From assembly GCA_965242725.1 (NCBI GenBank), contig CBDESZ010000006.1, positions 32,001 through 96,000 on the forward strand: 64,000 nucleotides of DNA, read 5' to 3'. The translations under genes were made by a program, and so were the position numbers. The notes under the pieces were generated by a model. That model was not told where the DNA came from, did not search any database, and saw nothing but the letters and a program-made list of their open reading frames with translations. Shown one piece after another: positions 17,836-60,250 of the stretch (positions are counted from its first letter, which is position 1; every line of letters begins with the position of its first letter). Source of the stretch: Alkalispirochaeta sp. Lineage in GTDB: Bacteria; Spirochaetota; Spirochaetia; DSM-27196; Alkalispirochaetaceae.

Positions 17836-17889
17836 GTCACGGAATCTTCATATCTCCGACAGGGAAACGTCATCTTCTGCAGTTACCGT
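17836..17889 (+). promoter_or_regulatory. OmpR-type 11-bp direct-repeat promoter
   Basis: GTCAC/TTCAT/GACAG/GTCAT at 17836/17847/17858/17869, then 10 nt, then TACCGT. Confidence 0.55.
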
Positions 17890-17948
17890 TATATATGTGC
17901 GAATGCATGGAGCACAATAGACGCACTAAAACTGAAAGGAGAAAAAAG

Positions 17949-19112
17949 ATGAAACATTTTCGTGGAACCCTGACGATGGCCGCGTCGCTGATCATCGGCG
18001 TTGCGGTGGGTAGTACGGTCTTTGCAGATGACGCCCAAAGAGGGACAAGAGGAACCGCGTGGGTAGCCGCCGGTATGGAGGACAGCCTCACCGCCGTAGA
18101 TGTCGCCACAGGGGAGGTGGTTGCTTCGCTTCCGGTAGGAGTGAATCCCCACATACTGAGCGTCAGCCCGGACGGTCGGACTCTGTACGTGATTAATGCG
18201 GGCGAGCACGACCGTGAGCCCCACTCCGAGTCCGATGTGGCCGGCCCCGGAGAAAGCATGGCAACGGGTGGCCCGGCCATGGGAAGCACCGCTGCCGGGC
18301 ACATGGAACGTGAACGTGACAAGGAGTTGGCGGGCAACAGTCTCTGGGCCGTCGACGGCGCCACGGGACGCATTATCGCTCGAGTACCCGTGGGATTGGG
18401 TCCTACTCATCCGCTTGCCTCTCCCGATGGCCGGTTCGTCTACGTGACGAACACGGATGAGAATACCGTCAGCGTCATCGATACACGCACGTGGACGGTC
18501 GTTGCTACCGTCGGAGGGCTTCCTGAGCCTCACGACGCGGCGATCACCCCGGACGGGCGCCTGCTCTACGTCGCCACATCCGAATCCAGCACTCTGTCGA
18601 TCGTGGATACGGTGCGGCGTAGCGTCGTGGCAAGCTTCGGTGTAGGCACCAAGCCGCGTGGAGTAGCGGTCGGAGGCGCCGAAGGCGAGACCGCCTATGT
18701 CACCAACAAGGCGGATGGAACAATGACGATACTGGACGTCCCGTCCGGAACCGTCCGTGGCACGTTTGAAGTGGGCCGTGGTGCTCATGCGCTTCGGGTT
18801 GCACCGGACGGACGCACGATCTATATCGCCCTGAGCCAGGAGAACGCCGTAGCGGTTTTCGATACCGAAACCACGACGGTTGTGCGCAAGATACCGGTTG
18901 GAACCACACCGGAACAGATTGACCTCAGTGCCGACGGCACCCTCTTGTTCGCCGCCAATAACGGAGACGCAACGATGACGATTATCCGCACCTCCGATCA
19001 AAAGCGCGTCACGACCGTGCCCGTAGGCGCCGGCGCATACGGTGTGCAAATGGTAACGATCGGTTTGAAGGCGACGGATAGCGATCATTCTACTTCGCGC
19101 ATGGGTCGATAG
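17949..19112 (+). CDS. Exported YVTN/YncE beta-propeller protein with His/Met-rich insert
   Basis: Signal peptide; repeated PH..SPDGR..YV blades including YVTN. Confidence 0.88.
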   Translation: MKHFRGTLTMAASLIIGVAVGSTVFADDAQRGTRGTAWVAAGMEDSLTAVDVATGEVVASLPVGVNPHILSVSPDGRTLYVINAGEHDREPHSESDVAGPGESMATGGPAMGSTAAGHMERERDKELAGNSLWAVDGATGRIIARVPVGLGPTHPLASPDGRFVYVTNTDENTVSVIDTRTWTVVATVGGLPEPHDAAITPDGRLLYVATSESSTLSIVDTVRRSVVASFGVGTKPRGVAVGGAEGETAYVTNKADGTMTILDVPSGTVRGTFEVGRGAHALRVAPDGRTIYIALSQENAVAVFDTETTTVVRKIPVGTTPEQIDLSADGTLLFAANNGDATMTIIRTSDQKRVTTVPVGAGAYGVQMVTIGLKATDSDHSTSRMGR

Positions 19113-19124
19113 ACAAAACAACGA

Positions 19125-20774
19125 TTAGCCGCGGTCTCTTCTGATTGCGAGCCATATGACCCTCAGAATTGCACCTGCAGCGGCAAGAATGCCGAGCCAG
19201 TCGCCCAGTGCACGGTAGAGCGTCCACATTTCCGGGTAGAGCGGAACCGTCACGCTCCGGGCAGTTGCCGAGAACATCGGCAGACTCTGCGTGGCCACTC
19301 CACGGGCGTCAACCACCGTGGAAAGACCGCTGTTGGTGCTGCGAACCAGGGTGGTGCGCAGCTCAATGGTCCGCAAACGGGCGGCCGCAAAATGTTGTGT
19401 CTGGGCTGATTCCTGCCTGCTCCAGGAGTCGTTGGTAAGGTTAATGAGCAGCCGGGCGCCGCTACGGGCCATTCGGCGGGGAACCCAGCCGAAGGCGTCT
19501 TCAAAACAGATGGGAGTTCCGATAGGTATTCGTCTTCCGTCGGCGAGCGGTAACGGTAGCGGATTGCTTTGAGCTCCCGGGACCCATGTTCCCTGCAGAC
19601 CGACGACTTCGCGGAAGAAACGGCGCACCCAGGTGAGGTGCCAGAGGGGGATTCGCTCGGCAAAGGGAACCAACTGCTGCTTCGCGTAGCTGCCGAGAAG
19701 TACTCCCTCGGGAGATATCACCAGCGCGCTGTTGGCCGCGTCCCTCCCGTCGGCGCCTGCGGGCATCGGCGCCCCGGTGATAAGCGGGACGTTCATGCGA
19801 TCGAGAAACGCGACAAACGGCATGACTGCCGGAGTTTGGGAGTAGTAGTTCGACGCGCCCGTATATGGACGCCGGAGTGCGGTCTCGCTCCAAACTACGG
19901 CGTCGACGGAATCCGCTGAATCCAGGTCGCGTAATCGGCTCAGGGTCAGCTCCTGCGCCTGCATCAGGGCGTCGGGGAAGCCGCCCGGGCGCCAACTGTC
20001 GATGTTTTGCTGTACGAGCAGCAGATCGAGGTTCTCCACCGGTTGCAGAGTTGAGACTCTCCACGTTCCGAAAGCGCCGGCTGAAACCACCAGCAGAACC
20101 GCCGCCAACAGGTGTCGGGGTGCCAAAAGAGTGGTGCGATGTGTCAGGCTCCGCCGGAAGCTGCCGGTGCCGGGCGTCGCCGACCGTGTTTCTCGGGTGT
20201 AGAATAGCTCGGCGACGGAACTATTGATGTAAGCAGCCAGAAAACTAAGCGCCCAGACCCCTCCCATCTCCGCTATCTGGGCAACGCTGTTCAAGGTGGC
20301 CAGAGGATACGCCACGAGGCCCCAGGGGTAGCCGAGGAATCCGACGGACTTCAGGTACTCATACCCTGTCCATGCCACGGCTATCCAGAGCGGACGCATC
20401 GCCGTGCCGCGGTGCGCCCGCTCTACCGTCAACGGCGCCAGCGTATCTACTGCGGAGCGCCCCCGGTGGGCAATGAAATGCAGGTAACCGAAGAGCAGAT
20501 AGTTGTAACCGGCGTAAGCGATCACCACACCCCCGATTGTCCATACTGAGAACTCTCCAAAGAAAGCAAGCCAGTAGTTACCGAGCAGCGTACTCACCGT
20601 TCCGAAGAGAAGACCGTACCGGGAGGCGCTCCTTCGCGACGCCGTTCGATAGACGACAAGCAACACCGGTACAAGGGCCAGGAGCCCCGGGAGAATCGCC
20701 CCCGTCGGAAAAAGCTCGTTCGGCAGGGACAAAGGAAGGAGCAGGGATGAGGCAAGCGTGAGTGTCAGGTTCAT
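19125..20774 (-). CDS. lnt: Apolipoprotein N-acyltransferase
   Basis: GFLGYPW, WSETA, KQQLVPFAE, PICFED, TNDSW and QH (E-K-C triad). Confidence 0.92.
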   Translation of the reverse strand: MNLTLTLASSLLLPLSLPNELFPTGAILPGLLALVPVLLVVYRTASRRSASRYGLLFGTVSTLLGNYWLAFFGEFSVWTIGGVVIAYAGYNYLLFGYLHFIAHRGRSAVDTLAPLTVERAHRGTAMRPLWIAVAWTGYEYLKSVGFLGYPWGLVAYPLATLNSVAQIAEMGGVWALSFLAAYINSSVAELFYTRETRSATPGTGSFRRSLTHRTTLLAPRHLLAAVLLVVSAGAFGTWRVSTLQPVENLDLLLVQQNIDSWRPGGFPDALMQAQELTLSRLRDLDSADSVDAVVWSETALRRPYTGASNYYSQTPAVMPFVAFLDRMNVPLITGAPMPAGADGRDAANSALVISPEGVLLGSYAKQQLVPFAERIPLWHLTWVRRFFREVVGLQGTWVPGAQSNPLPLPLADGRRIPIGTPICFEDAFGWVPRRMARSGARLLINLTNDSWSRQESAQTQHFAAARLRTIELRTTLVRSTNSGLSTVVDARGVATQSLPMFSATARSVTVPLYPEMWTLYRALGDWLGILAAAGAILRVIWLAIRRDRG

Positions 20775-20783
20775 CAAATACCT

Positions 20784-22850: not shown

Positions 22851-23053
22851 CCGTTTTCCCTCCAATGGTCGAAGCTCGCAGGGTACCACGTATACCTATC
22901 GGTGTAGAAGAGGGTTTTGAGTCATCCCCGATTCGTCGTGAATATCGTAATGTCCGCGTCGCATTGAGCACCGTAAGGAGGGACCCCTACATCCGCTATG
23001 ACCGCCTCCCACATCCCGCTTAATACAATTCCGTGACAAATCATATTTCATTA

Positions 23054-25900: not shown

Positions 25901-26644
25901 TTACCTGAACCGTCTCAAACTTCGAACGGAAAAGAGCGCACCGTCCAGGGACGCGTCGTGCTCTATGCTCTCTATTTCCATCACCGTGCGACGGCCGGAG
26001 CCCGGCAGTTCCACGACCGTTTTTGCTGCGTACCAGTATCCCTGGTGGCGACCGACATCCTCTACCGTGAGTCGCTTGACGACGGACCCGTCCTGAAGAA
26101 GTTCCGTTCGTACCGGCAAGTAGCTCTCGCCGTCGACGACCATCCTCGCGCCGTCGTAGGTGGAGTTTTCCTTCTTTGACCGAAGCTCCAGGGCATAGTC
26201 CGGACCCGTCCTGCTCCAGCTCACCACCTCATAGGTGTCGGAGTAGTCTATCTCCGCTATATCTTCGTACGTTAGGCCGGTTCCCATGAACTCCTCATTC
26301 TTCACGTGGGAGGCGATCCTCCGCTCTCGCCGAAAGGCCGGAAGGTAGAGGTAAATGAGGTCGTCGTCACGATCCTGGACGTCGATGAGAAGGGCGACTC
26401 CCCGGATGTCCGCCGGAGAGAGAAAGCGCATGAGAAATTGATCGCTTCCTCGCTGGTACATCCTGACGGAACGAGTCTCACTCGCGCCCCGGCCGTCGCT
26501 GATCGTCATCGAGAGGACCGCTTCCATGTCGGTGTCCGGATTGGCCGCCGCCTCGGCATTGGCGAGGATATCCTCGCCGGTCTGGGCGAAGGCACCTGTC
26601 CCGGCCAGCAGGAATAGTAGCGATGCCACAAGTAGCTTCTTCAT
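25901..26644 (-). CDS. Outer-membrane lipoprotein-sorting (LolA-like) protein
   Basis: RFLSPADIRGVALL, YLYLPAFRRERRI, FMGTGLTYED and FSVRSL. Confidence 0.85.
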   Translation of the reverse strand: MKKLLVASLLFLLAGTGAFAQTGEDILANAEAAANPDTDMEAVLSMTISDGRGASETRSVRMYQRGSDQFLMRFLSPADIRGVALLIDVQDRDDDLIYLYLPAFRRERRIASHVKNEEFMGTGLTYEDIAEIDYSDTYEVVSWSRTGPDYALELRSKKENSTYDGARMVVDGESYLPVRTELLQDGSVVKRLTVEDVGRHQGYWYAAKTVVELPGSGRRTVMEIESIEHDASLDGALFSVRSLRRFR

Positions 26645-29459: not shown

Positions 29460-29489
29460 ATCAATACCATACCAGGGTAGGGTATTGAT
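29460..29489. promoter_or_regulatory. CsoR-type operator upstream of the MMPL operon
   Basis: ATCAATACC-ATACCAGGGTAG-GGTATTGAT dyad. Confidence 0.75.
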
Positions 29490-35386: not shown

Positions 35387-35440
35387 GTCACCTACTCGTA
35401 ATACAACCGTCACTCTGCGGTCACCTTGAGCTGCTACATT
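35387..35440 (+). promoter_or_regulatory. OmpR-type 11-bp direct-repeat promoter
   Basis: GTCAC/GTAAT/GTCAC/GTCAC at 35387/35398/35409/35420, then 10 nt, then TACATT. Confidence 0.7.
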
Positions 35441-36041
35441 CTCAATCGTTGACGGCGAGACCGGAAGGCCGCCGCGACAAATACTAAATCTGGAGGACGA
35501 TTTATGAATAATCGGACGCTTTTAGTCGCCGTATTGCTGACGGCAGTTGTATTTGGAGCCTTCGCACAAGTCGACGGGCACAATCGGAGTGTCGAAGACG
35601 TGGAGGCGGAAATTCGGACCACCCTGGGCTTGAGTAGCGAGGAGAGAATCAATCCGGACGCGGTTCCCGAGGAACTGCTCATCGTCCTCGGTGACGCGGT
35701 AATGGGAGCCTATGTAGGTGACCCTGAGCGGCACGAATGGATGGACGAGATGATGGGAGGCGAAGGTTCGAGCTCTCTGGATGCCGCACATCGGTGGATG
35801 GCGTATCGGTATTTAACCGGCGGATATGCCACGGCGGGAGGAATGGGATACGGCATGATGGGCGGTGGAATGATGGGTACCGCCGGCATGATGGGCGGCG
35901 GTTGGGGCCTCATGGGCAACCCCGACATGATGTACGAGGGGATTCCGTACGGTTCACCGGAAGAGGTGCTCAAACGCCGCTATGCGGCCGGGGAGATTTC
36001 GCGTCGGGAATTCCGGCGAATGCTTCGCGAGATCGAATAGA
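35421..36041 (+). repeat. About 620-bp direct repeat, copy 1
   Basis: Near-identical to 44903-45523 (offset 9482). Confidence 0.95.
35504..36040 (+). CDS. Exported His/Met/Gly-rich SHOCT-domain protein, copy 1
   Basis: Signal peptide, HEWMDEMMGGEGS, GMMG repeats, LKRRYAAGEISRREF. Confidence 0.85.
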   Translation: MNNRTLLVAVLLTAVVFGAFAQVDGHNRSVEDVEAEIRTTLGLSSEERINPDAVPEELLIVLGDAVMGAYVGDPERHEWMDEMMGGEGSSSLDAAHRWMAYRYLTGGYATAGGMGYGMMGGGMMGTAGMMGGGWGLMGNPDMMYEGIPYGSPEEVLKRRYAAGEISRREFRRMLREIE

Positions 36042-39774: not shown

Positions 39775-39782
39775 CGGCGGCG

Positions 39783-40685: not shown

Positions 40686-40742
40686 GCTCCAACTATAAGT
40701 TGAGTAGCTTGATTTGTGAACAGGACATTGGTAGGACACCGC

Positions 40743-44868: not shown

Positions 44869-44922
44869 GTCATCTGTTCGTAATAAGCCTGTCATTCTAC
44901 GTTCACCTTGAGCTGCTACATT
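44869..44922 (+). promoter_or_regulatory. OmpR-type 11-bp direct-repeat promoter
   Basis: GTCAT/GTAAT/GTCAT/TTCAC at 44869/44880/44891/44902, then 10 nt, then TACATT. Confidence 0.7.
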
Positions 44923-45523
44923 CTCAATCGTTGACGGCGAGACCTGAAGACCGCCGCGATAAATACCAAATTTGGAGGACGATTTATGAATAATCGGACA
45001 CTTTTAGTCGCCGTATTGCTGACGGCAGTTGTATTTGGAGCCTTCGCACAAGTCGACGGGCACAATCGGAGTGTCGAAGACGTGGAGGCGGAAATTCGGA
45101 CCACCCTGGGCTTGAGTAGCGAGGAGAGAATCAATCCGGACGCGGTTCCCGAGGAACTGCTCATCGTCCTCGGTGACGCGGTAATGGGAGCCTATGTAGG
45201 TGACCCTGAGCGGCACGAATGGATGGACGAGATGATGGGAGGCGAAGGTTCGAGCTCTCTGGATGCCGCACATCGGTGGATGGCGTATCGGTATTTAACC
45301 GGCGGATATGCCACGGCGGGAGGAATGGGATACGGCATGATGGGCGGTGGAATGATGGGTACCGCCGGCATGATGGGCGGCGGTTGGGGCCTCATGGGCA
45401 ACCCCGACATGATGTACGAGGGGATTCCGTACGGTTCACCGGAAGAGGTGCTCAAACGCCGCTATGCGGCCGGGGAGATTTCGCGTCGGGAATTCCGGCG
45501 AATGCTTCGCGAGATCGAATAGA
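44903..45523 (+). repeat. About 620-bp direct repeat, copy 2
   Basis: Near-identical to 35421-36041. Confidence 0.95.
44986..45522 (+). CDS. Exported His/Met/Gly-rich SHOCT-domain protein, copy 2
   Basis: Protein identical to 35504-36040. Confidence 0.85.
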   Translation: MNNRTLLVAVLLTAVVFGAFAQVDGHNRSVEDVEAEIRTTLGLSSEERINPDAVPEELLIVLGDAVMGAYVGDPERHEWMDEMMGGEGSSSLDAAHRWMAYRYLTGGYATAGGMGYGMMGGGMMGTAGMMGGGWGLMGNPDMMYEGIPYGSPEEVLKRRYAAGEISRREFRRMLREIE

Positions 45524-45592: not shown

Positions 45593-46258
45593 ATGGGTGA
45601 ACAAAGCGATATCGTACGGAAACGATATAATAGAATTGCTCCGCTCTACGATCTTATGGAAAGACCGATGGAGAGTCATGGCACCCAATGGAGAGACGAG
45701 CTTCTCCAAGAAGCTCACGGGCGGGTGCTGGAAGTCGGCGTGGGCACGGGGAAGAACCTGGCGAGCTATCCCAAAGGGGTTCACGTAACCGGGATCGATT
45801 TCAGCTCCGGTATGATTGCACGGGCTCGCGAGCGAGTGCGGGAGCTTGGGCTTACAAATGTCACACTTATCGAGATGGATGCTGAGCAAATGGAGTTTTC
45901 GGACGACAGTTTTGACACGGTCGTAACGACCTGTGTCTTTTGCTCGGTGCCGGTTCCGATCAAAGGATTGGAGGAGATCCATCGCGTCTGCAGGCCGGAA
46001 GGAAAGGTGCTCATGCTCGAGCACGTTCGGAGTAAGGGTGCAATTCTCGGTCCAATAATGGATTTTCTGAACCCGCTCCCATTGCATCTCTACGGTGCCA
46101 ATATCAACCGACGGACCGTCGAAAATCTTCGCCTGGCCGGATTCAAGGACATTGAGGTCACCGACCTTTGGAAAGACATCATGAAACGGATCGTCGCTCG
46201 CCCGTACAAGACATCGGATAAATCGTTTGACTTTATATGGGAGGTTACAAATGCGTAA
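45593..46258 (+). CDS. Class I SAM-dependent methyltransferase
   Basis: VLEVGVGTG, GIDFS and CVFCSVP; GAGGAGG RBS. Confidence 0.88.
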   Translation: MGEQSDIVRKRYNRIAPLYDLMERPMESHGTQWRDELLQEAHGRVLEVGVGTGKNLASYPKGVHVTGIDFSSGMIARARERVRELGLTNVTLIEMDAEQMEFSDDSFDTVVTTCVFCSVPVPIKGLEEIHRVCRPEGKVLMLEHVRSKGAILGPIMDFLNPLPLHLYGANINRRTVENLRLAGFKDIEVTDLWKDIMKRIVARPYKTSDKSFDFIWEVTNA

Positions 46259-47303
46259 AATATTTTCAATAACGGTATCCATCTCGTTAGTGCTATTAAT
46301 AGGTGTCGGCAGTTTGTTCGCGGCGGGCCGCGCGGAAGAGAGTGCACCGGCAGGAACTCCGACGATCGGCGTCGTCCACATCACCTTTGGCCCGTCTTAT
46401 TGGTTTAGCGGGGTGGAGTATGCGAGCTTCGGCGCAGCCTATCGGGAGCAGTGGCGCCGCCTCTCGGAGGAGGAGAATTTCAAACTCATCCAAGTGGAGG
46501 CAGGCGTCACGGCATACGATCTCGAATTCGCAACCCGGCGTCTCATCGACCTCGGGGTCGATGCGATTCTGCTCTTTCAACACGATCCGTATGCTGCGGG
46601 TCAGGCGGTACAGCTTGCCCAGGAGGCCGGTATTCCCGTCGCCATACACGGCATCAGGCCGGCATCGGGAATCAAGGCTCCTTATGTGGGTTTCTCGGAG
46701 TACGAAACGTGCAGGCTCCTGGGTCAAATCGCGGCGGAACGGTTTACCGAGCAAACGCCGGGTGTGATTCCCCGCGTTCTGGTGCTGAACAATAGGACGG
46801 TGGAACGTGATGTCAATCGAGAGCGGGGGTTCCTCGACGGTTTCCGGTCCCGCGTCCCGGACGTTGAAATAATCCAAGCCCCGGAAGATAGCGGTACTCT
46901 GGAAAGCGCCCTGCGAGTAGCCGAGGTAGCGTTCTTCAACAATCCGGAAATCAACATGGTCTATGCCACTAGCGACGAGCGTGCCTTCGGCGTGATGCAG
47001 GCGTTGAATAACGCGAATATCGCTCCGGCGGAGGTCGGCATAGTCGCCGTCGGCGGCGGCGAACGCGCCATGAAAAACGTCCTTCAACAACATAATTGGT
47101 GGGCACAAGTCGGTCTCAATGTTCGCGGCGTCGCCGAAAAATCGTACGAAGTACTGTCGATGATGATGGCAGGCGACATTCCTTTTGGGAGCGAGCGGGA
47201 GATTCTGGTGGACTCGCCGATTTTTGTTGATCCGTCGGTCGCGGAGGTGCGGGCCTATCTTCAAAACAATCACGGAATCGAAGCTCCTGACCTGACAAAG
47301 TAA
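46251..47303 (+). CDS. Periplasmic sugar-binding-type protein, orphan
   Basis: Paralog of 29653-30711 (shared FKLIQVEAGVTA..LEFATRRL and RGVAEKSYEVL). Confidence 0.75.
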   Translation: MRKIFSITVSISLVLLIGVGSLFAAGRAEESAPAGTPTIGVVHITFGPSYWFSGVEYASFGAAYREQWRRLSEEENFKLIQVEAGVTAYDLEFATRRLIDLGVDAILLFQHDPYAAGQAVQLAQEAGIPVAIHGIRPASGIKAPYVGFSEYETCRLLGQIAAERFTEQTPGVIPRVLVLNNRTVERDVNRERGFLDGFRSRVPDVEIIQAPEDSGTLESALRVAEVAFFNNPEINMVYATSDERAFGVMQALNNANIAPAEVGIVAVGGGERAMKNVLQQHNWWAQVGLNVRGVAEKSYEVLSMMMAGDIPFGSEREILVDSPIFVDPSVAEVRAYLQNNHGIEAPDLTK

Positions 47304-47310
47304 CACAATC

Positions 47311-49221
47311 TCACGGTGACGCGGATTGATACGCCAGCATACATTCCTCCGAGCAGAAGTAGTGCGTACGATCGGAGCTCTCGAGAACAAAGGGATTGCC
47401 CGTTTGATGCACTACCATACCGCAGACCGGGTCCATTGCTCCGTCGGAAATTCCGGTCGTCCGCACTTCGATATCCGAAACGGTTGGGACGCTCGTCCCG
47501 GTATTCCTGAGTATCTCGCTGACTTCTGCGGCGGTACTCACCGATACGCAGCGATTCGCGATTGTCCGAAACCGGTCCTCGGAGCCTTCCGGTACCGCGC
47601 GCCGTACCGCGTCCACCGCATGGACATCTACGCTGAGATCTGAAAAACCGAGGCCGAAAAGCAGCGGGACCATGTCGGGATCCGAGGCGATCTCTCCACA
47701 GAGCGTCACCGGAACGGACGCGGCCTTCGCAGACTCGACGATGTGTGCCAGAGCCCGCAACGCGGTGGGGTGGTAAGGTCGGTAGAGGTGGCCCACATTC
47801 CCGTTTGTACGGTCTACGGCAAAGTGGTACTGCAGCAGATCGTTGGTGCCGACGCTGACAAAATCGACCTTGTCATAAATCTCCTGCAGTGTCCAAAGAA
47901 TGGAAGGGACCTCCAACAATACACCCTGCTTGAAATCACGCCGATACGGCGTCCCTTCAGCGTCGAGCTGTGCCCGTGCCTCGCCTACTAGGGAGAGTAC
48001 CGCGTCGAGATCGTCGACGGTTTCTATCATCGGAAAAAGCAGTCGGAGCTCCCCGCATTCAAGACCCGCCCGAAGGATGGCCTTCGTTTGCGTAATCAAT
48101 ATCTCCGGATGATAGGCGTAAATGCGATGCGCCCGAAGACCGAGGAAGGGGTTTTCCTGAGGACCGAGGGAAAAGAAGGAGAGACTCTTATCTCCGCCGA
48201 CATCGAAGGTCCGGATTGTGACCGGAGAGGCGGGCCACTCCCGGCAGAGTGTGCGGTATTCCCGGTACTGCTGCTCTTCCGTCGGAAAGCCTTCCGCTCG
48301 GGTCAGGAGGAACTCGCTCCTGTAGAGGCCTATCCCGGCGATGCGCCCATCTTTGTCCGTCGACGATGCGTGGGTATCCACTACATTTAGGTAGACCGAG
48401 AGAGGCGAGGCCACGCTTCCACCTATGTCCGTTTTCTCCACTTCAATCCACTCTTCGATTTCCGGGTCCTTTAGCCCCAGTATGAGCCGCCCATTCGTGG
48501 TGTCTACGACAACCCGACTGCCGGCTACCTCCCTGAGGGACTCAACCCCGGCAACTCTGAGTACCGGTATGCCGAAGGCCTTCGCCATGATCGCGGCGTG
48601 GGAGAGGGGGGTTCCCGTTGCCGCAATAATCGCTTTCACCCCCGCGTCCTTTGCCTCGAGAACCTCAGTCACCAGAAGCTCCTGGGTAACGAACACCGGG
48701 GCCTCCACATCGCAGACCGTCGAAAGTACGTCCTCCCGCTTTTGCCCGTCTAACCCTTCACGAAGCCGGCGGTGCAGATCCTCGATGTCGGAGGCTTTCT
48801 CCCTGGTTATCTCGTGACCGGAGCGTTGTAACCGGGTCTTGACCGATCCGAAAACTTCCGCAACCGCGCTCTCCGCCGTCGCGTCTTCTTCTTCGATCCT
48901 CTTTCTGACCTGCTCCCGAAGTCCCTCATCTTTAAGAAGAAGGATGTGAGTCCGGAGGATATCGGCCTCGGAACCAAACCCTTCCGCTCGAAGTATCTCC
49001 TCGGTAGATGCAATCTCCGCCTCCAGTAACGACATTTGCCTCTCTACGCGAGCGAACTCCGAAGCGTACGGCGCCTGAGCCGCGATCCGCCCGTTGTCGG
49101 GCGCCTGATGCGGTCGTGGTACGTCTCGAAAACAGATCGTGCCGGAAACCACCGGCGCCGTTGAAATCGGTATTCCCGCAAGGAACCTTACCCTGCCTTT
49201 GTCGTCTTCAGTCATCGTCAT
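47311..49221 (-). CDS. PTS Enzyme I-like PEP phosphotransferase fused to a C-terminal YHS/TRASH domain
   Basis: SHAAIMAK phospho-His, GIGLYRSEF, RTFDVGGDK, ENPFLGLR, SVGTNDL and LCGE; C-terminal DPVCGM..HYFCSEEC. Confidence 0.9.
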   Translation of the reverse strand: MTMTEDDKGRVRFLAGIPISTAPVVSGTICFRDVPRPHQAPDNGRIAAQAPYASEFARVERQMSLLEAEIASTEEILRAEGFGSEADILRTHILLLKDEGLREQVRKRIEEEDATAESAVAEVFGSVKTRLQRSGHEITREKASDIEDLHRRLREGLDGQKREDVLSTVCDVEAPVFVTQELLVTEVLEAKDAGVKAIIAATGTPLSHAAIMAKAFGIPVLRVAGVESLREVAGSRVVVDTTNGRLILGLKDPEIEEWIEVEKTDIGGSVASPLSVYLNVVDTHASSTDKDGRIAGIGLYRSEFLLTRAEGFPTEEQQYREYRTLCREWPASPVTIRTFDVGGDKSLSFFSLGPQENPFLGLRAHRIYAYHPEILITQTKAILRAGLECGELRLLFPMIETVDDLDAVLSLVGEARAQLDAEGTPYRRDFKQGVLLEVPSILWTLQEIYDKVDFVSVGTNDLLQYHFAVDRTNGNVGHLYRPYHPTALRALAHIVESAKAASVPVTLCGEIASDPDMVPLLFGLGFSDLSVDVHAVDAVRRAVPEGSEDRFRTIANRCVSVSTAAEVSEILRNTGTSVPTVSDIEVRTTGISDGAMDPVCGMVVHQTGNPFVLESSDRTHYFCSEECMLAYQSASP

Positions 49222-49238
49222 TACCCCTTTCTCGAAAC

Positions 49239-49364
49239 AGAGTATCAGTGACAGGTGACCGCAAGGTGACGAGTTTATTACAAATGTATGACAGCGCAGA
49301 GTTATATAGCGTCATCAAATTGCAATACGGTCGTTATATCTGCGTAATGCCGCTCTTTTATACT
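49239..49364. promoter_or_regulatory. Back-to-back pair of OmpR-type 11-bp repeat promoters
   Basis: Minus: GTCAT/GTAAT/GTCAC/GTCAC (49292-49255), 10 nt, TACTCT. Plus: GTCAT/GCAAT/GTTAT/GTAAT (49311-49348), 10 nt, TATACT. Confidence 0.72.
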
Positions 49365-49421
49365 CCGCATAAATGTAGGCTGTTTGGAGCCGCAATAGCA
49401 CTCAATGGAGGAAATTGCTAT

Positions 49422-50063
49422 ATGAATATGGACACCATGAACCAGTACGGGAAATTCCGCGCGACGTCGCACCGTGCCGCGCTCTTCGCGCTTATTCTGA
49501 CGACCATGATCGGAGCGCCGACGGTCTTCTCCCTCCCCTTCGGTCATATGGGATTGGCCAATCACCGTTCCACGGGATACATAGGACCCTCGATCGGTAT
49601 GTCGCCGGTTGAATCCGGCCCGGCCACCTGGGTCGGTCTCCGAGGGGGGTGGGAGTTTGATCACGCCGTCGCCGTGGGTGTAACGGGTAATTGGCTTCTA
49701 AGCAACATCGAGGAAGAGACCGGAAACAGCGCCAACCTCGGTTACGGAGGAATAGAGTTTCGGACGTTTCTATTGTCCCAGGCCCCGGTCTCCCTCGCCT
49801 TCGATTTAACAATCGGGGCCGGTTCCGTGGGAAGCGGCGTTCATTTCATGGGGGGAGGTCACCACGATTCCGACGAGGAGTCCGACGGCTTTTTCGTGGT
49901 CGAGCCGGAGCTGCAGTTGGTGTTTCGGGCGAATCGTTTCGTTCGCCTCGAATTGGGAGCCGGATACTTTATCACCAGCGGCGTCGACGTACCGGGAATT
50001 AACGATGGGGACTTGAGTGGGCCAAAGGCGACGCTATCCATGAGCTTTGGAGACTGGCTATAG
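49422..50063 (+). CDS. Small outer-membrane beta-barrel protein with His/Met loop
   Basis: GGAGG RBS, signal peptide, amphipathic strands, HFMGGGHHD and FFVVEPEL. Confidence 0.65.
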   Translation: MNMDTMNQYGKFRATSHRAALFALILTTMIGAPTVFSLPFGHMGLANHRSTGYIGPSIGMSPVESGPATWVGLRGGWEFDHAVAVGVTGNWLLSNIEEETGNSANLGYGGIEFRTFLLSQAPVSLAFDLTIGAGSVGSGVHFMGGGHHDSDEESDGFFVVEPELQLVFRANRFVRLELGAGYFITSGVDVPGINDGDLSGPKATLSMSFGDWL

Positions 50064-50134
50064 GAGCCCTCTCAGGACACGTGATACTCACCGCTGTTAG
50101 GTATAAATTCGTTCTACCGTGAGGCATTCTTCAC

Positions 50135-50159
50135 ATACCATAGAGTGGTAGGGTATAAT
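50135..50159 (+). promoter_or_regulatory. CsoR-type operator overlapping TATAAT upstream of gap-ldh
   Basis: ATACCATAGAGTGGTAGGGTATAAT, close match to the 29464 site. Confidence 0.7.
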
Positions 50160-53841: not shown

Positions 53842-53956
53842 ATTATATTGATATTAGCGTATGAATCTTTTTTAATCGAAGGGCGATACGGCTGATTAAT
53901 CCGGGCTCCTGATGAGTCCGGAAGAGGTACACAGCGCCCTTCGAAAGGAGCCACGT

Positions 53957-55987
53957 ATGAGTAAGCAGGTTGACCACAATCACCACAATCACCACGGTGA
54001 TCAACACCATGACCACAATGAACATCACAGGATGATGATCCGTGATTTCCGAACGCGGTTTTACGTGACCCTGGTGTTCACCATTCCGGTCCTCGCGTTA
54101 TCGGAACTCATTCAGCAGTTCCTCGGCTTTTCGTTCACCTTTGCCGGAGCGGATTATGTCGTCTTTGGCCTGGCCACGATCATATTTGTATATGGCGGCT
54201 GGCCCTTCCTTAGCGGTCTGGTCGGTGAACTTAAGCAGAAAGCACCGGGCATGATGACCCTCATCGCTCTCGCCATAACGGTAGCGTATGTCTACAGCGC
54301 GGCGGTAACGTTTGGTCTTGAAGGGACACCTTTTTATTGGGAATTGGCAACCTTAATCGCGATTATGCTTGCGGGTCACTGGATTGAAATGGCCTCAGTA
54401 TTAAGTGCGTCGTCCGCCCTTGAGAAGCTTGCCCAACTCATGCCGAACGAAGCGCACAAAAAGTCCGGAGACGATGTTAAAGACGTCCCGCTCTCGGAGA
54501 TCAAGAAGGGTGATATTCTGGTCATCAAGCCGGGAGAAAAAATACCCTCTGACGGCGTGATCACTCGCGGGTCGAGCTATATAGATGAGTCTATGCTGAC
54601 CGGTGAGTCTCGCCCGGTGCACAAGGAGTCAGGCGATCAGCTTATCGGCGGCTCTATAAACGGCGACGGATCGATGGAACTCAGGGTGGAAAGTTCGGGC
54701 GAAGATTCCTACCTTTCAAAAGTCATCAATATGGTCAGGGAGGCGCAGGCAGCCAAGTCGAAGACGCAAGCACTTTCGGATCGTGCGGCGCTCTGGCTGA
54801 CGATTGTCGCAATAACGGTGGGATTATCGACCCTCGTGGCGTGGTTGCTTGCCGGGCAGGGGTTGCAGTTTTCCATTGCCCGGATGGCGACGGTAATGAT
54901 CATTACGTGTCCCCACGCTTTAGGGCTGGCGATACCATTGGTGGTAGCACAGTCCACCGCCAAGTCCGCTCAGAACGGCCTGCTGATTCGCAACCGTACC
55001 GCCTTTGAGAATGCCCGGAAGATAAGCGCGGTCCTCTTTGATAAAACGGGAACGCTTACCAAGGGAACCTTCGAGGTTAACTCCGTGAATGTCCATAGCG
55101 GTCCGTACACAGAAAAGGAAATTCTCTCATTTGCGGCAGCCTTGGAGGGGCAGTCGGAACACCCCATCGGTAAGGGAATTGTGACAAAAGCGAAGAGCGA
55201 CGGAATCACCATCCAATCTGCCGATGATTTCGAGGCGATTAAGGGTAAGGGCGTCACCGGTACCGTCGGGAGTAAGCGCATTCAGGTAGTGAGCCCGGGA
55301 TATTTGGAAGAACAGGGGCTCGACAGGCCGCAGGGAGCGGAGCGCAAGGGCGGGGTCACCCGCGTCTTCGTCCTCGTTGACGGCGAAGTTGCAGGATCCG
55401 TGGCTCTTTCCGACACCATTCGACCCGAGTCCTACCGGGCGATTCAAGCGCTGAAAAAACGGGGAATCGAATGCTGGATGCTCACCGGAGATAACCGGGA
55501 GACTGCCGAAGCCGTTGCGGAGGAACTCGGAATGGACGGGTTCTTTGCGGAGGTCCTCCCCGATCAGAAGCAGGAAAAGGTGAAGGAGTTGCAGGACAAA
55601 GGAGCGTATGTTGCTATGACCGGTGATGGGGTCAATGATTCGCCGGCCCTCGCCCAGGCACAGATCGGCATTGCCGTCGGGTCCGGAACGGACGTTGCCG
55701 CTGCGACGGCCGATATTATACTGGTCAACTCCAACCCACTTGATATTACCGCGTTAATTCTCTTTGGTCGGGCTACCTACCGGAAAATGGTGCAGAACCT
55801 GATCTGGGCAACGGGTTACAACGTGGTGGCCATCCCCCTGGCGGCAGGCGTTTTATACAGTAGCACCGGTATGGTGCTTTCACCGGAGGTTGGTGCCATT
55901 CTGATGTCCCTTTCCACCGTGATTGTTGCCGTAAACGCGCGACTCTTGCGCGTCAAGAAAGAGGAATTGGAAGAGGCGACGGCTTGA
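53957..55987 (+). CDS. copB: Copper-exporting P1B-3 ATPase
   Basis: His-rich N-terminus, CPH, DKTGT, GYN and MSLST. Confidence 0.95.
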   Translation: MSKQVDHNHHNHHGDQHHDHNEHHRMMIRDFRTRFYVTLVFTIPVLALSELIQQFLGFSFTFAGADYVVFGLATIIFVYGGWPFLSGLVGELKQKAPGMMTLIALAITVAYVYSAAVTFGLEGTPFYWELATLIAIMLAGHWIEMASVLSASSALEKLAQLMPNEAHKKSGDDVKDVPLSEIKKGDILVIKPGEKIPSDGVITRGSSYIDESMLTGESRPVHKESGDQLIGGSINGDGSMELRVESSGEDSYLSKVINMVREAQAAKSKTQALSDRAALWLTIVAITVGLSTLVAWLLAGQGLQFSIARMATVMIITCPHALGLAIPLVVAQSTAKSAQNGLLIRNRTAFENARKISAVLFDKTGTLTKGTFEVNSVNVHSGPYTEKEILSFAAALEGQSEHPIGKGIVTKAKSDGITIQSADDFEAIKGKGVTGTVGSKRIQVVSPGYLEEQGLDRPQGAERKGGVTRVFVLVDGEVAGSVALSDTIRPESYRAIQALKKRGIECWMLTGDNRETAEAVAEELGMDGFFAEVLPDQKQEKVKELQDKGAYVAMTGDGVNDSPALAQAQIGIAVGSGTDVAAATADIILVNSNPLDITALILFGRATYRKMVQNLIWATGYNVVAIPLAAGVLYSSTGMVLSPEVGAILMSLSTVIVAVNARLLRVKKEELEEATA

Positions 55988-56008: not shown

Positions 56009-56062
56009 GTAACATGATCGCAACATAGCGGTCGCCGGAATGTAACATTGAATGGATATGAT
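56009..56062 (+). promoter_or_regulatory. OmpR-type 11-bp repeat promoter heading the two-component operon
   Basis: GTAAC/GCAAC/GTCGC/GTAAC at 56009/56020/56031/56042, then 10 nt, then TATGAT. Confidence 0.7.
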
Positions 56063-56083
56063 TTGTACTACCAGGAGGAAACG

Positions 56084-56266
56084 ATGGGACTTTTACTGAT
56101 TATTGTGTTATTCGCCGTGGGATACTTTATGTACAAGAACGGATTGATCCCGGCGTCTCTCGATGGCGCCGATCGAAAGGCGCCGATCGATATTATCAAC
56201 GAGCGCTACGCCCGGGGTGAAATCGACCGGGAAGAATACGAGCGACTCAGACGAGATCTGAATTAA
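56084..56266 (+). CDS. Small TM-SHOCT protein
   Basis: AGGAGG RBS; INERYARGEIDREEY. Confidence 0.8.
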   Translation: MGLLLIIVLFAVGYFMYKNGLIPASLDGADRKAPIDIINERYARGEIDREEYERLRRDLN

Positions 56267-56288
56267 GTTTGACTTGGAGGAACAATAC

Positions 56289-56555
56289 ATGATGCACAAC
56301 AACTGGGGCTGGGGAACCGGCATGGGATTTGGATACGGAGGCGGTATCGTCTCCATCCTGCTGATAGCGGTAATTCTCATCGGAGGATTCTTCTTCATAC
56401 GGTGGATTATCCGTCGAACCGATGGAGACGGGCTTTCCCCCGGCGGATCAGGCCGACGTGACCCGGCGGAGATACTTAAGGAACGGTACGCGAAAGGTGA
56501 AATTTCCAGGGAAGAGTACCGAAGCATGTTGTCGGACATAAGAGGTGGAGAGTAA
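56289..56555 (+). CDS. Small TM-SHOCT protein
   Basis: MMH..GMG N-terminus, TM helix, LKERYAKGEISREEY. Confidence 0.82.
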   Translation: MMHNNWGWGTGMGFGYGGGIVSILLIAVILIGGFFFIRWIIRRTDGDGLSPGGSGRRDPAEILKERYAKGEISREEYRSMLSDIRGGE

Positions 56556-57250
56556 TGATTTATAGTCGAAAATCGTTCTTGTTTGCGGTGGCACTGGCTT
56601 TTTTTGTAGCGGGAATTGCCACTGCTCAGGAGGATGCACACGGACGCGACGTCGAGGAAATTCTCCAACAGATCATACAGGTTCAGGGAGTAGAACGGGT
56701 CGGCCAAATTGACGCCAATGCGGTCGACCGGGATCTCCTTGAAGAGCTCGGAGACGGCGTCATGGGCCTCATGATTGCGGACGACGAGCGGCACGAATGG
56801 ATGGATCGAATGATGGGAGGCGAAGGCTCCGCTGAGCTTGCCTCCACGCACGCCTGGCTTGGATATAACTACCTTCAAAATGACGGTAATCTCGCCTCCT
56901 TCGGCCCCGGAATGATGGGGTTCGGAATGATGGGCCCCGGTATGATGGGTGGCTGGAACTGGGGCGCGGACCGTAACGGACCCTGGTCGGAAACCTGGGG
57001 TGATCGGGGAAGCTGGTACGGCGGAACGCCGTTTAGTCGGCAGGCCGGTACCTACCTCTGGATTATCGGACTTCTCGTTTTGGTACTGATAGTCGCTATC
57101 ATTGTAGCGCTCGTGCGGACCAGGACGCCCCGACACGGCTCGCAATCGGGCAAATCAGGTGAGAGCGCCGTCGCCATCCTGCAGGCTCGCTATGCCAGGG
57201 GCGAGCTTTCTCAAGAAGAGTATCGTCAAATTAAAAAGGAGCTGCGGTGA
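56555..57250 (+). CDS. Exported His/Met-rich protein with TM and SHOCT domain
   Basis: HEWMDRMMGGEGS and GMMG repeats; paralog of 35504. Confidence 0.82.
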   Translation: MIYSRKSFLFAVALAFFVAGIATAQEDAHGRDVEEILQQIIQVQGVERVGQIDANAVDRDLLEELGDGVMGLMIADDERHEWMDRMMGGEGSAELASTHAWLGYNYLQNDGNLASFGPGMMGFGMMGPGMMGGWNWGADRNGPWSETWGDRGSWYGGTPFSRQAGTYLWIIGLLVLVLIVAIIVALVRTRTPRHGSQSGKSGESAVAILQARYARGELSQEEYRQIKKELR

Positions 57251-57271
57251 ATTCGATTAGCAGGGTAGCTT

Positions 57272-57967
57272 ATGGCCGGTGAGCGCATTCTCATCGTTGA
57301 CGATGAGGCCGGCATACAGAAGACACTAAAGGCGTATCTGGAAAATGAAGGATACGCCACGGAGTCAGTAACCGAAGGCGATTGGGTGCTCCCGAGGGTA
57401 CAGATATTTAAGCCTGACGTTGTTATTCTTGATATTATGCTCCCAGGAATTGATGGAATAGAAGTATTAAGACGACTCCGGCAGGACTCCTCCGTATTGG
57501 TGCTCATGCTCAGCGCCAAGGGCGAGGAGTCCGACCGTCTCGTGGGACTCAAAATGGGGGCAGATGACTACGTCGTAAAACCATTTAGTCCCCGGGAGGT
57601 TGTAACTCGGGTCGGCGTTCTCCTTCGGCGCGGTCGGGGAGCGGACGGCGACCCGGGCGACGTTATTAGATTTTCCCGAATCACCGTCGACCCGGGCAGC
57701 AGACAAGCGTGGAAAGATGCGACAATACTGAGCCTGACTCCGATAGAGTTTGACTTGCTCCTCACCCTTTCCCGCAACAGCGGGCGAGTCCTCAGTCGAG
57801 ATCAGTTGATCGACCACGCCTGGGGTGACGACTACTACATCGATGAGCGTGTCGTTGATGTGCACGTTCGCAGACTCCGCAGGAAGATCGAAGACGATCC
57901 CCGAGAAGCCCGAATTATTGCCACCGCGCGAGGTGCCGGCTATCGCCTGGATTCCAATCACGCATGA
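57272..57967 (+). CDS. OmpR-family response regulator (CopR-like)
   Basis: IVDDE, LDIMLP, GADDYVVKPF and VDVHVRRLRRK. Confidence 0.95.
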   Translation: MAGERILIVDDEAGIQKTLKAYLENEGYATESVTEGDWVLPRVQIFKPDVVILDIMLPGIDGIEVLRRLRQDSSVLVLMLSAKGEESDRLVGLKMGADDYVVKPFSPREVVTRVGVLLRRGRGADGDPGDVIRFSRITVDPGSRQAWKDATILSLTPIEFDLLLTLSRNSGRVLSRDQLIDHAWGDDYYIDERVVDVHVRRLRRKIEDDPREARIIATARGAGYRLDSNHA

Positions 57968-59085
57968 AGCTGGAAACATTCTTAAAACCGAAACTTGGAC
58001 GTAAGCTCTTTCTTTCCCATTTGATTGTTGTACTCGTGGGAAGCGTGGTCCTGGCGGCCGTCGCCTACCTGCACGCACCTCGCGCGCTGACACATCACAT
58101 GGCGGAAATGGACGCAGCAATGGGGCGGATGCACGGCATGGGAGTGGATCTCAGGCAGAGTTTTCTTGCTGCGGTGGGCGAGGTGCTCTTCGTCGCGGGA
58201 CTCGTCGCCGTCGGGGCGGCGGTAGTGGTGAGCAGTTTCGTGGCATGGCGAATTATCGGGCCAGTTCGTTCTTTGACGGTTGCCAGTAGACGTATCGCCG
58301 ACGGCGATTACTCCCACCGAGTCGAGGCCGTCTGGAAGGATGAGTTGGGAGAGCTGGCCGCGTCGTTCAATCGCATGGCTGCCGCACTCGATGAAACCGA
58401 AAGGAGACGTGCGGAACTTATTGGCAATGTAGCCCACGAACTTCGCACGCCGCTCACAACGATTCGGAGCATGATGGAAGGGCTCATTGATGGTGTGTTG
58501 CCGGCGGATACCGAAACCTTTCTCGACGTACAGCGCGAGGCATCACGGCTCGGCCGTCTCACCTCAGAATTGAGCGAGCTCTCTCGTGCCGAAGCGGGGG
58601 AGATTTCATTGGAAACCAAGCTGACGGATCCGAAAGTACTGCTCCGAATAGCCGTTAATCGCCTTCGTCCGCAATTCCAGGACAAAGGTATTGCGCTGAC
58701 GGTCGGGTTTCCACAACGAAACCTGCCGTGGGTCGATGTAGATGACGAAAAGATACTCCAGGTTCTGCTCAATTTAATCGGAAATGCACTCCAATATACC
58801 GACCCGGAGGGTAGCGTCCAGGTACAGTGCCAAGCGGAGGGAGATTTGGTTCGGTTTTCCGTTTCTGATGATGGAATCGGCATTCCGCCCGAGGATCTCC
58901 CTCGGGTGTTTGAGCGATTCTATCGGGTGGATAAGTCGCGAGCACGCTCCCGCGGTGGGAGCGGAATCGGTCTCACTATTGCCGCTCATTTGGTGAAGGC
59001 TCATGGTGGAACAATCGCGGTCAAAAGTAATGGGATTGGTCAAGGAAGTGTTTTTTCTTTCGTCATCCCACGACCGAAAGATTAA
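57964..59085 (+). CDS. HAMP sensor histidine kinase (CopS-like)
   Basis: 2 TM flanking HHMAEMDAAMGRMHGM; AHELRTP, NLIGNA, DDGIG and GSGIGL. Confidence 0.93.
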   Translation: MKLETFLKPKLGRKLFLSHLIVVLVGSVVLAAVAYLHAPRALTHHMAEMDAAMGRMHGMGVDLRQSFLAAVGEVLFVAGLVAVGAAVVVSSFVAWRIIGPVRSLTVASRRIADGDYSHRVEAVWKDELGELAASFNRMAAALDETERRRAELIGNVAHELRTPLTTIRSMMEGLIDGVLPADTETFLDVQREASRLGRLTSELSELSRAEAGEISLETKLTDPKVLLRIAVNRLRPQFQDKGIALTVGFPQRNLPWVDVDDEKILQVLLNLIGNALQYTDPEGSVQVQCQAEGDLVRFSVSDDGIGIPPEDLPRVFERFYRVDKSRARSRGGSGIGLTIAAHLVKAHGGTIAVKSNGIGQGSVFSFVIPRPKD

Positions 59086-59179
59086 ACAATTTATCCGTCT
59101 GACACATGGCAGAACGTATTCGTGTTGATGGGTATGAACGAGTGCGGAGTGACGCTCCGCACCCGGATGTTTGCCGCTC

Positions 59180-59389
59180 TTATCTGACCGCTCCAACCGT
59201 ATAACCCGCCTCGGAAACTGATTGAGCGTACGTCTCCAAGGGAATCTCAGCTTGAACATTTACGGAAGCGACTCCCGACTGCAAATCAACCGTTACGGTG
59301 GAGACGCCGTCGATTTTTTCAAGCGCTTGCCGAACACTCATCGCACAGTGATCGCAACTCATATCCTTAATGTAAACTTGTTGTGTCAT
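59180..59389 (-). CDS. copZ: CopZ-like HMA metallochaperone
   Basis: 69 aa, MSCDHC and EAGY; CsoR-type box TTACC-CCTGTAG-GGTAT at 59411-59427. Confidence 0.9.
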   Translation of the reverse strand: MTQQVYIKDMSCDHCAMSVRQALEKIDGVSTVTVDLQSGVASVNVQAEIPLETYAQSVSEAGYTVGAVR

Positions 59390-59527
59390 ATCGACCTCCT
59401 GAAAAATACATTACCCCTGTAGGGTATATAGAATTATACATCGTCGATATTTGTGGGTCAAGTGCTCCCCAGAATATTTTCATGGCGTAACAAACGCTCA
59501 CCGCCGTTCCCGATTTGGTTGTTCCGC

Positions 59528-60142
59528 TTAAGGATAGGCCGTAATACGTTTTATGATGTCCTTCCAGAGATTTGTCACTTCGATATCGCGAAATCCCGCC
59601 CGGCGAAGATTATCCACGGTTCGGCGGTTGATGTTTGCCCCATAAAGATGGAGTGGAAGAGGGTTTAGAACGTCCATAAGAGGACCGAGTATCGGGCCTT
59701 CACTGCGAACGTGCTCGAGCATGAGCACCTTACCGTCCGGTTTGCATACACGGTGAATCTCTTTGAGACCGGCTACGGGAAGTGGTACCGAGCAAAACAC
59801 GCATGTCGAGACAACCGTATCGAACGTATTGTCGTCAAAATCGAGGTGCTGTGCATCCATTTCCAGGAGCGTTACGTTAGATAGGCCATGCTGCGCTTTT
59901 CGGTCGGCTGCACGTGCAATCATCGCCCGGCTGAAATCGATCGCCGTGACCGAGACGTCCTTCGGGTAGTAGGGAAGGTTTTTACCCGTACCGACTCCCA
60001 CTTCAAGAACTGCACCTTTCGCGAAACTCAACAATTCTTCGCGCCACGACGACGCCATCCGCTCCATCGGGTTTTCTAATAGATCATATACGGGAGCGAT
60101 TCGGTCGTACCGTTGTTGGATTTTGTTAATTTGTTTTGTCAT
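59528..60142 (-). CDS. Class I SAM-dependent methyltransferase (paralog of 45593)
   Basis: VLEVGVGTGKNL, CVFCSVP and LNPLPLHLYGANINRRTV shared with the paralog. Confidence 0.88.
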   Translation of the reverse strand: MTKQINKIQQRYDRIAPVYDLLENPMERMASSWREELLSFAKGAVLEVGVGTGKNLPYYPKDVSVTAIDFSRAMIARAADRKAQHGLSNVTLLEMDAQHLDFDDNTFDTVVSTCVFCSVPLPVAGLKEIHRVCKPDGKVLMLEHVRSEGPILGPLMDVLNPLPLHLYGANINRRTVDNLRRAGFRDIEVTNLWKDIIKRITAYP

Positions 60143-60207
60143 ATCATGTACCTTAGTCAAAGTTTCTTTTCACGCGCCTGCTTCCCGAACATCTTAAATA
60201 TAACGCT

Positions 60208-60250
60208 ATGGTATGTATGAGAATTGACGGCGATATTACAGTTTGATGAA
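60208..60250 (-). promoter_or_regulatory. OmpR-type 11-bp repeat promoter (3 units)
   Basis: Minus strand TTCAT/GTAAT/GTCAA, then 10 nt, then TACCAT. Confidence 0.6.

Follow-up and report, generated by a model that had tools for sequence, protein, structure and literature searches.

The question raised by this 64,000-nt stretch of an Alkalispirochaeta sp. contig (CBDESZ010000006.1, positions 32,001 to 96,000; the window) is which regulator reads the repeat arrays that precede seven promoters of its island, and to what signal that regulator responds. An earlier note had proposed the seven promoters as the extracytoplasmic-copper regulon of the island's own two-component system, composed of an OmpR-type regulator encoded at 57272 and a kinase encoded at 57964. 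As an overall explanation, the arrays are likely to be activator sites for a two-component system of the Corynebacterium CopRS type answering to copper. The conserved, multi-promoter regulon of such a system is real, while its sharing by three paralogous regulators and its response to copper are probable, judging from sequence.

All seven arrays stand where they had been placed, at 17836(+), 35387(+), 44869(+), 49292(-), 49311(+), 56009(+) and 60250(-). Each contains four pentamers (three or four had been described) of the form [GT]T[AC]A[CT] at an 11-bp period, with GTAAT/GTCAC as consensus half-sites and TTCA[CT] in some repeats, and the -10 box TAnnnT lies exactly 10 nt past the fourth pentamer at every site, as had been claimed. 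A -35 element is lacking at the seven arrays (0-3 of 6 consensus matches); by comparison, the three CsoR-box promoters located between 44.5 and 61 kb agree with the sigma70 consensus in 11 of 12 positions. Transcription is predicted to start 6-8 nt past each -10 box, at 17895-7, 35446-8, 44928-30, 49231-3, 49370-2, 56068-70 and 60189-91. The geometry of four 11-bp repeats, 10 nt and a -10 box is generic for OmpR/PhoB proteins and is found likewise at spirochaete Pho boxes; specificity is carried by the half-site sequence.

The pattern matched eight times in the window, once at each of the seven sites and once more at 60250 in a second register; over 100 dinucleotide shuffles made in 500-nt blocks, matches averaged 0.19 and never exceeded 2. 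These eight matches were obtained with period 11 and gap 10, and the other 24 period/gap combinations gave 0-2 each; the pattern had been derived from the tested sites themselves, and both tests are post hoc. When each site was left out in turn, 3-17 of 8.69 million genome positions scored as high as the held-out site. Self-comparison placed 35387 and 44869 within one duplicated 658-bp unit (97.4% identity), and the sites therefore count as six independent ones, not seven; no flanking similarity was found between any other pair of arrays.

Out of sample, where 11 sites at kinase-chosen loci of other genomes (numbered with G) were taken by array score alone, TAnnnT stood at gap 10 in ten and at gaps 6-9 or 11-15 in none, with a background of 0.6%. 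A matrix built from 17 other-genome sites ranked the seven window sites and two sites beside paralogous kinases first (scores of 30.2-49.7, the next being 24.3). Among six orthologous promoter pairs, substitutions affected 11 of 138 core positions versus 60 of 186 spacer positions; in the 49292 array and its G413 orthologue, 0/23 core and 8/31 spacer positions differ.

The arrays accompany one family of sensor kinases. In 99 genomes of the order, the array was present in all eight kinase-positive genomes (seven, plus G408 with a partial kinase) and in 3 of 91 kinase-negative ones, these three being single matches with one mismatch; the reversed pattern, used as a control, matched once among the 99. 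Six of eight genomes unseen when the pattern was fixed were positive (G409, G463, G481, G513, G590 and G635); the site of G687 is present with a 1-nt deletion, and G772 had no site. At the class level (401 genomes) the kinase was found in eight and the pattern in 22, with six of the eight kinase-positive genomes matching. A search with the N-terminal part of the kinase over 400 genomes from across the phylum gave no match, which marks the family as patchy. A metagenome scan gave 80 mostly distant kinases, none with a strong GTAAT/GTCAC array adjoining it; several of the closest have TTTAC/TTCAT arrays.

The window kinase (57964..59085, +) has two transmembrane helices, a short extracytoplasmic loop of ~30 residues with conserved H45 and M49, and HAMP, HisKA and HATPase domains, with the phosphorylated histidine at residue 158 (153 in CopS). 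Its partner (57272..57967, +) is an OmpR-family response regulator with the recognition helix ERVVDVHVRRLR. Against the pLEW279b copy of CopRS, identity is 36.6% for the kinase and 42% for the regulator, and in a tree of 92 kinases the window kinase and the pLEW279b CopS fell in one clade (49 of 92 rows; SH-like approximate likelihood ratio test, SH-aLRT, 97), with the BaeS-like kinases of this genome outside. Among 120 homologues the loop residues H45, M49 and E73 are kept in 118, 104 and 116. The His/Met-rich loop of the earlier note is thus present in the window copy, but its extra His and Met residues are peculiar to that copy and it is H45, M49 and E73 that are conserved. A member of the regulator family very probably binds the arrays.

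C. glutamicum CopRS (cg3285/cg3284, near-identical to the pLEW279b copy) is the closest described model. According to the available portions of PMC3140484 and PMC3353115, its CopS has two helices and a 31-residue loop with three His and two Met, and its CopR, which binds a single site (TGAAGATTTnnTGAAGATTT), acts as activator of copB and copO as well as of its own operon. The architecture is shared (two transmembrane helices, ~30-residue His/Met loop, HAMP-HisKA-HATPase, OmpR-type regulator), and so, as far as those sources extend, are copB in the locus, autoregulation and operation beside CsoR, features which in the spirochaete are deduced from sequence. The 11-bp-period repeat TGAAGATTTnnTGAAGATTT also carries TTCA half-sites on its reverse strand (PMC3140484, in the part available). 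The CopS loop carries HDHMLM. In contrast, the C. glutamicum system has one two-repeat site genome-wide, whereas at least nine four-repeat GTAAT/GTCAC sites, each 10 nt before a -10 box, and three paralogues are found here, where the predicted targets comprise His/Met-SHOCT proteins, a propeller, a barrel, methyltransferases and an enzyme I-YHS fusion (EI-YHS). Neither the window nor the paralogue loci showed a gene for a multicopper oxidase, one Cu-oxidase_2 gene being located elsewhere in the genome. The CopR half-site consensus is AAATCTTCA, compared with GTAAT/GTCAC here and TTCA[CT] in some repeats only; half-sites vary within the clade.

Homologues from Chloroflexota-like genomes, Deinococcus, Meiothermus and Rhodococcus share the clade with the window kinase and have CueP, DUF305, SHOCT, DUF302 and copper ATPases among their neighbours, but their half-sites are TTTAC/TTCAT and their recognition helices differ; several metagenome loci show the same array geometry directly 3' of the kinase. 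The proteobacterial CusRS, PcoRS, CopRS and CzcRS systems follow the same copper-type two-component logic; they have a GTAAT half-site and palindromic boxes. The CusRS/CzcRS models TIGR01386 and TIGR01387 stay far below their cut-offs here (163 of 292.6 and 171 of 279.2), and sensors of the CusRS type have a much longer periplasmic region (PMC3140484, in the part available). At the level of search results, we found no relevant characterisation of the Thermus/Deinococcus homologues and no published description of a CopS-type system in free-living spirochaetes.

Several points weigh against the assignment of the arrays to this family. The kinase tree was a quick search without bootstrap, with CopS on a long branch. 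In BLAST with CopS the three family kinases reached 160-181 bits, barely above the 159 of a BaeS-like kinase, and CopR gave no separation at all (136-139 bits). The 17 other-genome sites had initially been located with the matrix or pattern of this genome, and some are orthologues. In G449 and G494, GTAAT arrays accompany other OmpR systems, G402 has an array and no family regulator was found there, and at the class level the pattern also matched 16 of 393 kinase-negative genomes; besides G449, the 15 others were inspected, and many are TTAAC arrays 5' of pstS-like, ugpB-like, arsC-like and htrA-like genes. Related genomes are not independent, and co-occurrence is therefore given as counts instead of probabilities. 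Finally, a terminator-like hairpin lies in G590 between the array-headed SHOCT gene and a methyltransferase-EI-YHS pair, so array control of EI-YHS is unsure there.

The mechanism of regulation is the ordinary, textbook one of OmpR/PhoB proteins. The signal would be extracytoplasmic copper, such as that pumped out by the CopA/CopB ATPases encoded nearby, and the short kinase loop would bind it at H45/M49, probably with both subunits of the dimer taking part. Once phosphorylated, the regulator would occupy the four 11-bp repeats in head-to-tail order, probably in the form of two dimers and with the GTAAT-[GT]TCAC pair as core; it would cover the -35 region and bring sigma70 polymerase to a promoter whose sole element is the -10 box. 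Its targets would be its own operon, the exported His/Met-SHOCT proteins, the propeller, the barrel, methyltransferases and EI-YHS, to which the paralogue loci would add small HMA-like proteins, CueP and DUF302. The array regulon would operate beside a cytoplasmic CsoR regulon. The motif, the SHOCT-linked His/Met domain without a fold match and the PtsI-YHS fusion are new; the value lies in the motif, the uncharacterised targets and the two-residue sensor hypothesis. A binding site and regulon are thereby predicted for a CopS-type sensor in free-living spirochaetes, the question of how short-loop CopS kinases sense copper is narrowed to two residues, and two kinds of protein that are widespread but unstudied, the His/Met-SHOCT proteins and EI-YHS, acquire probable copper roles.

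Copper is quite likely the signal, a judgement based on gene context. The CopB signature was found in 10 of 16 stretches around family loci, the misses being five contigs only 3-10 kb long and the kinase stretch of G413, where CueP is present instead. Arrays lie 5' of SHOCT-DUF302-copB in G513, G635 and G687, and 5' of cueP in the paralogue locus on contig C6 of this genome. Targets are also exchanged with boxes that we take to be CsoR-like from their consensus: EI-YHS follows an array in this genome (G000) and in G413, but a CsoR-like box in G735 and G747, two genomes in which the family kinase was not found, and the 23089-type propeller has a CsoR-like box here and an array in G481. The same regulators and sites could instead answer to envelope stress, to methionine oxidation or to another soft metal (Ag, Hg, Cd/Zn). 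The island also encodes MerR regulators with a pyridine nucleotide-disulphide oxidoreductase and two further heavy-metal P-type ATPases, the 17836 array is located 3' of one of these ATPase genes, behind an ArsR-family gene, and His/Met ligands also bind Ag(I). Moreover, direct copper sensing by CopS had not been demonstrated as of PMC3353115, in the part available. Such a signal is nevertheless unlikely in view of the CopB, CueP and CsoR-like context across families, the exchange of targets, and the C. glutamicum mutant, which is sensitive to copper and not to Ni, Mn, Zn, Ag, Co, Pb or Cd, the other metals named in the available part of PMC3353115. The extracytoplasmic-copper regulon of the earlier note thus stands as far as OmpR-type activator sites and copper as the most likely signal are concerned, but the 57272 regulator is not singled out as its binder.

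That regulator has two close paralogues, 65.5% and 64.2% identical, whose kinases are 61-62% identical to the window kinase, among ~14 OmpR-type proteins in the genome (15 matches); each paralogous pair adjoins a copB-type ATPase. The genome-wide matrix scan that had been proposed as a check gave C6:12379 and C16:316433 as the two best sites beyond the training set, the 44869 duplicate aside, and both sit directly 3' of the paralogous kinases. The recognition helix is ERVVDVH[IV]RRLR in all three regulators, and ER[VI][VI]DVH[IV]RRLR in every family regulator seen. Genes for a small HMA-like protein, a His/Met-SHOCT protein, NusG_II and CueP and an rnf cluster follow C6:12379, and partial sites precede two DUF302 genes and the C16 copB. 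In G413 (96% complete), arrays precede the SHOCT, EI-YHS and barrel orthologues, and the one family kinase and regulator found are both of the paralogue type, so the window pair is probably not required. That the 57272 regulator alone controls the seven sites, its paralogues having separate regulons, is accordingly improbable: the island carries its gene, its operon begins with one of the arrays and its partner kinase has more His/Met in the loop than the paralogous kinases do, but the recognition helices are the same, the paralogue arrays have the same consensus, and in G413 targets of the window type carry arrays. Sharing of the sites by the three paralogues is the probable arrangement. The arrays can still be called those of the family to which the island's system belongs, with a regulon that extends beyond the island.

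Some details of the paralogue loci are recorded here. In C6:12379-20000 the array heads the HMA-like, SHOCT, NusG_II and CueP genes, followed by rnfCDGEAB with a RseC-like gene (compare L027 of G413); the lone array of G402 precedes a RseC-like gene, and the regulon may include a second Rnf complex. At C6:23306-23581 a partial array is flanked by a DUF302 gene and a barrel-gene copy with a frameshift, an arrangement that corresponds to an intact divergent pair in G413. GTAAT-rich 11-bp arrays without a matching TAnnnT are present at C3:120691(+), 5' of an ABC ATPase gene, and as an overlapping divergent pair at C27:108583-108609.

Reading of the arrays by another OmpR regulator of this genome (the CzcR/CusR-like C25:83036, or the BaeR-like C16:253433 or C25:252813) is very improbable. 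GTAAT half-sites are common among metal-sensing OmpR proteins, and G449 and G494 pair them with other systems, but no strong array was found near any of the three genes (best total 15.5, a TTCAT variant at C25:254214), and across genomes the array tracks the CopRS-type kinase, the genome surveys having covered that family and PhoB. The TTCAT array at C25:254214(-), which has the same geometry, heads the operon of the BaeR-like system.

It is still less credible that the arrays are Pho boxes read by PhoB. The 57272 regulator has PhoB among its best NCBIfam matches, below cut-off, and E. coli Pho boxes have tandem 11-bp repeats with a GTCA core, the arrays sharing a GTCAT core and their geometry with Pho boxes (PMC4447250 and PMC4415409, in the parts available). 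At the spirochaete pstS-like promoters, too, 10 nt separate the repeats from the -10 box. The same spacing is known for PhoB sites. However, protein, signal and targets differ from those of E. coli PhoB, the pstS and phoB promoters of this genome carry CTAAC/CTCAT repeats (array score of 7.8 at pstS versus 19-29), its PhoB-like protein has a different helix, ERAVDVQILGLR, and orthologues occur in 81 of 99 genomes, of which 75 lack the pattern; none of the seven array targets is annotated as a phosphate gene. The differing Pho box and the lack of co-occurrence exclude PhoB as the array reader. The Pho box of this genome, CTAAC/CTCAT at an 11-bp period, stands at C16:89360 and C9:25562, 5' of pstS and phoB, and TTAAC versions precede pstS-like genes in other spirochaetes. 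Chance, or copying of one promoter as in the 35387/44869 pair, has practically no probability left as the origin of the arrays, being ruled out by the out-of-sample sites and the core-versus-spacer conservation, with the shuffles and the self-comparison speaking against it as well.

With the arrays assigned to the CopRS-type family, the features behind them can be described; the gene identities given in the earlier note held throughout. The first array (17836..17889, +; repeats at 17836, 17847, 17858 and 17869; -10 TACCGT, 17884-17889) scores 30.4 with the other-genome matrix, and no orthologue of it was found among the 16 loci tested; its predicted target is a secreted YVTN beta-propeller of 387 residues (17949..19112, +; TIGR02276). 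The duplicated unit supplies the arrays 35387..35440 (+; -10 TACATT, 35435-35440) and 44869..44922 (+; -10 TACATT, 44917-44922), the latter conserved in G413. They precede identical copies (35504..36040 and 44986..45522, +) of a 178-residue protein with a signal peptide, a His/Met helical domain, a Gly/Met linker and SHOCT (PF09851). Downstream of the second copy are a class I S-adenosylmethionine (SAM) methyltransferase (45593..46258, +) and, overlapping it by 8 nt, a periplasmic binding protein (46251..47303, +; PF13407).

Two divergent arrays follow. The one on the reverse strand (49239..49292, a pattern match; repeats 49255-49292; -10 TACTCT, 49239-49244) has as its predicted target the 636-residue PtsI (enzyme I)-YHS fusion (47311..49221, -), and the forward one (49311..49364, +; -10 TATACT, 49359-49364; conserved in G413) precedes a 213-residue outer-membrane beta-barrel-like protein (49422..50063, +). 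The barrel had been predicted, and it matches atlas outer-membrane barrel clusters at 0.97-0.98; no Pfam match was found for it. The array 56009..56062 (+; -10 TATGAT, 56057-56062; conserved in G409) lies 21 nt past the end of a CopB-type copper ATPase gene behind a CsoR-like box (53912..55987, +; TIGR01511). It heads an operon of three SHOCT genes (56084-56266, 56289-56555 and 56555-57250; together 56084..57250, +; the third also with a His/Met domain), the regulator and the kinase, with intergenic gaps of 22, -1, 21 and -4 nt. The last array (60197..60250, -, a pattern match; repeats 60213-60250; -10 TATATT, 60197-60202) belongs to a second class I SAM methyltransferase of 204 residues (59528..60142, -), a predicted target 69.6% identical to the first. 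Beyond it, a CsoR/RicR-type repressor (60301..60627, +; PF02583, with NF052430 as best match, below cut-off) represents the separate, cytoplasmic copper regulon.

The earlier note had counted both methyltransferases and the binding protein in the regulon. The 59528 methyltransferase, which has its own array, is a predicted member. Lacking arrays of their own, the methyltransferase at 45593 and the binding protein at 46251 would be members by read-through alone, past a GC hairpin within the 70-nt gap 5' of 45593. A methyltransferase of the 45593 type follows an array-headed SHOCT gene in G413, G408, G409, G463 and G590, and homologues of the binding protein are near EI-YHS in G413, G735 and G747. 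The 56009 operon may also receive read-through from the CsoR-boxed copB, no terminator-like site being listed in the 21-nt gap. Four RNA runs were available as contigs only, without start-site information. One contig spans 54001-59411, that is, copB and the 56009 operon, which is not proof of a single transcript; another starts at 56073, near the predicted start, with a depth of 3 that is not evidence. The region 47557-50159 (EI-YHS and barrel) had zero cover, which indicates nothing either way. The RNA-library contigs differ from the window at ~140 positions, those listed being in copB (54223-55083), which suggests a strain carrying a recombined copB allele.

The most constant target is the exported protein composed of helical domain, Gly/Met linker and SHOCT, a probable Cu(I) binder. 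Among 144-147 distant homologues, each of M67, H77, M80, M83, M84 and H96 is retained in 129-142, and 554 clusters match the domain at E <=1e-10. The model has a mean predicted local distance difference test (pLDDT) score of 79, exceeding 90 in the domain, for which fold searches gave no match (best VIA Z 3.9; Foldseek E >=2.7) and atlas matches reached at most 0.84. Compared for a match to CopM/DUF305 and Csp, the protein gave SHOCT only in Pfam. No relevant publication on SHOCT and copper was found, at the level of search results. A gene at 61299-61802 encodes a divergent member of the domain family; it has neither SHOCT nor an array, and a copy lies near the C16 paralogue locus.

EI-YHS scores 357.5 with TIGR01417 (cut-off 341.7), its YHS domain being weak (E 0.0016, below cut-off). 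Among 114 homologues at 1e-100 the phospho-His motif is kept in 91 and the CGE motif in 100, and most have both enzyme I motifs and a DPVCxM...FCSxxC tail. The fusion occurs in six of the 401 genomes of the class sample, in a copper-related locus in all six, including G590, beside the family system and copB, and G802, next to a copA-like ATPase and a His/Met-domain gene. No publication joining the YHS domain, phosphoenolpyruvate-protein phosphotransferase and copper was found. A tentative reading is that the regulon marks two undescribed parts of the copper response. PtsI-YHS might be copper-controlled across spirochaete lineages, through either the array or CsoR, its Cys/Met YHS domain gating or protecting phosphoenolpyruvate-dependent phosphotransfer during copper stress, and the exported His/Met domain might be an oxygen-independent Cu(I) trap that replaces multicopper oxidase; this joint proposal is more doubtful than the regulon itself.

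Other features of the island were noted. CsoR-like boxes (TACC-n-GGTA) are present at 23059, 29465-29484, 35232, 36605, 50136, 52968, 53753, 53826 and 59412. They stand before copA and copB, and also before another propeller gene, an MMPL/LolA-like cluster, the gene for pyruvate formate-lyase and a GAPDH-LDH operon of archaeal type (type II); copper control seems to extend to spare enzymes of fermentation. Two apolipoprotein N-acyltransferases and Lgt are encoded at 19125-22889 and 30833-31795, and lnt or lgt is also near family loci in G413, G433 and G772; the island genes are possibly a backup for copper-sensitive lipoprotein maturation. At 26641-29441, 12334-14410 and 39654-41393, an MMPL transporter and FeoB each occupy two open reading frames and cysteine-metabolism genes look fragmentary. 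The island is bounded by an IS3-type element (62523-64000), 100% identical to a copy at C6:116307.

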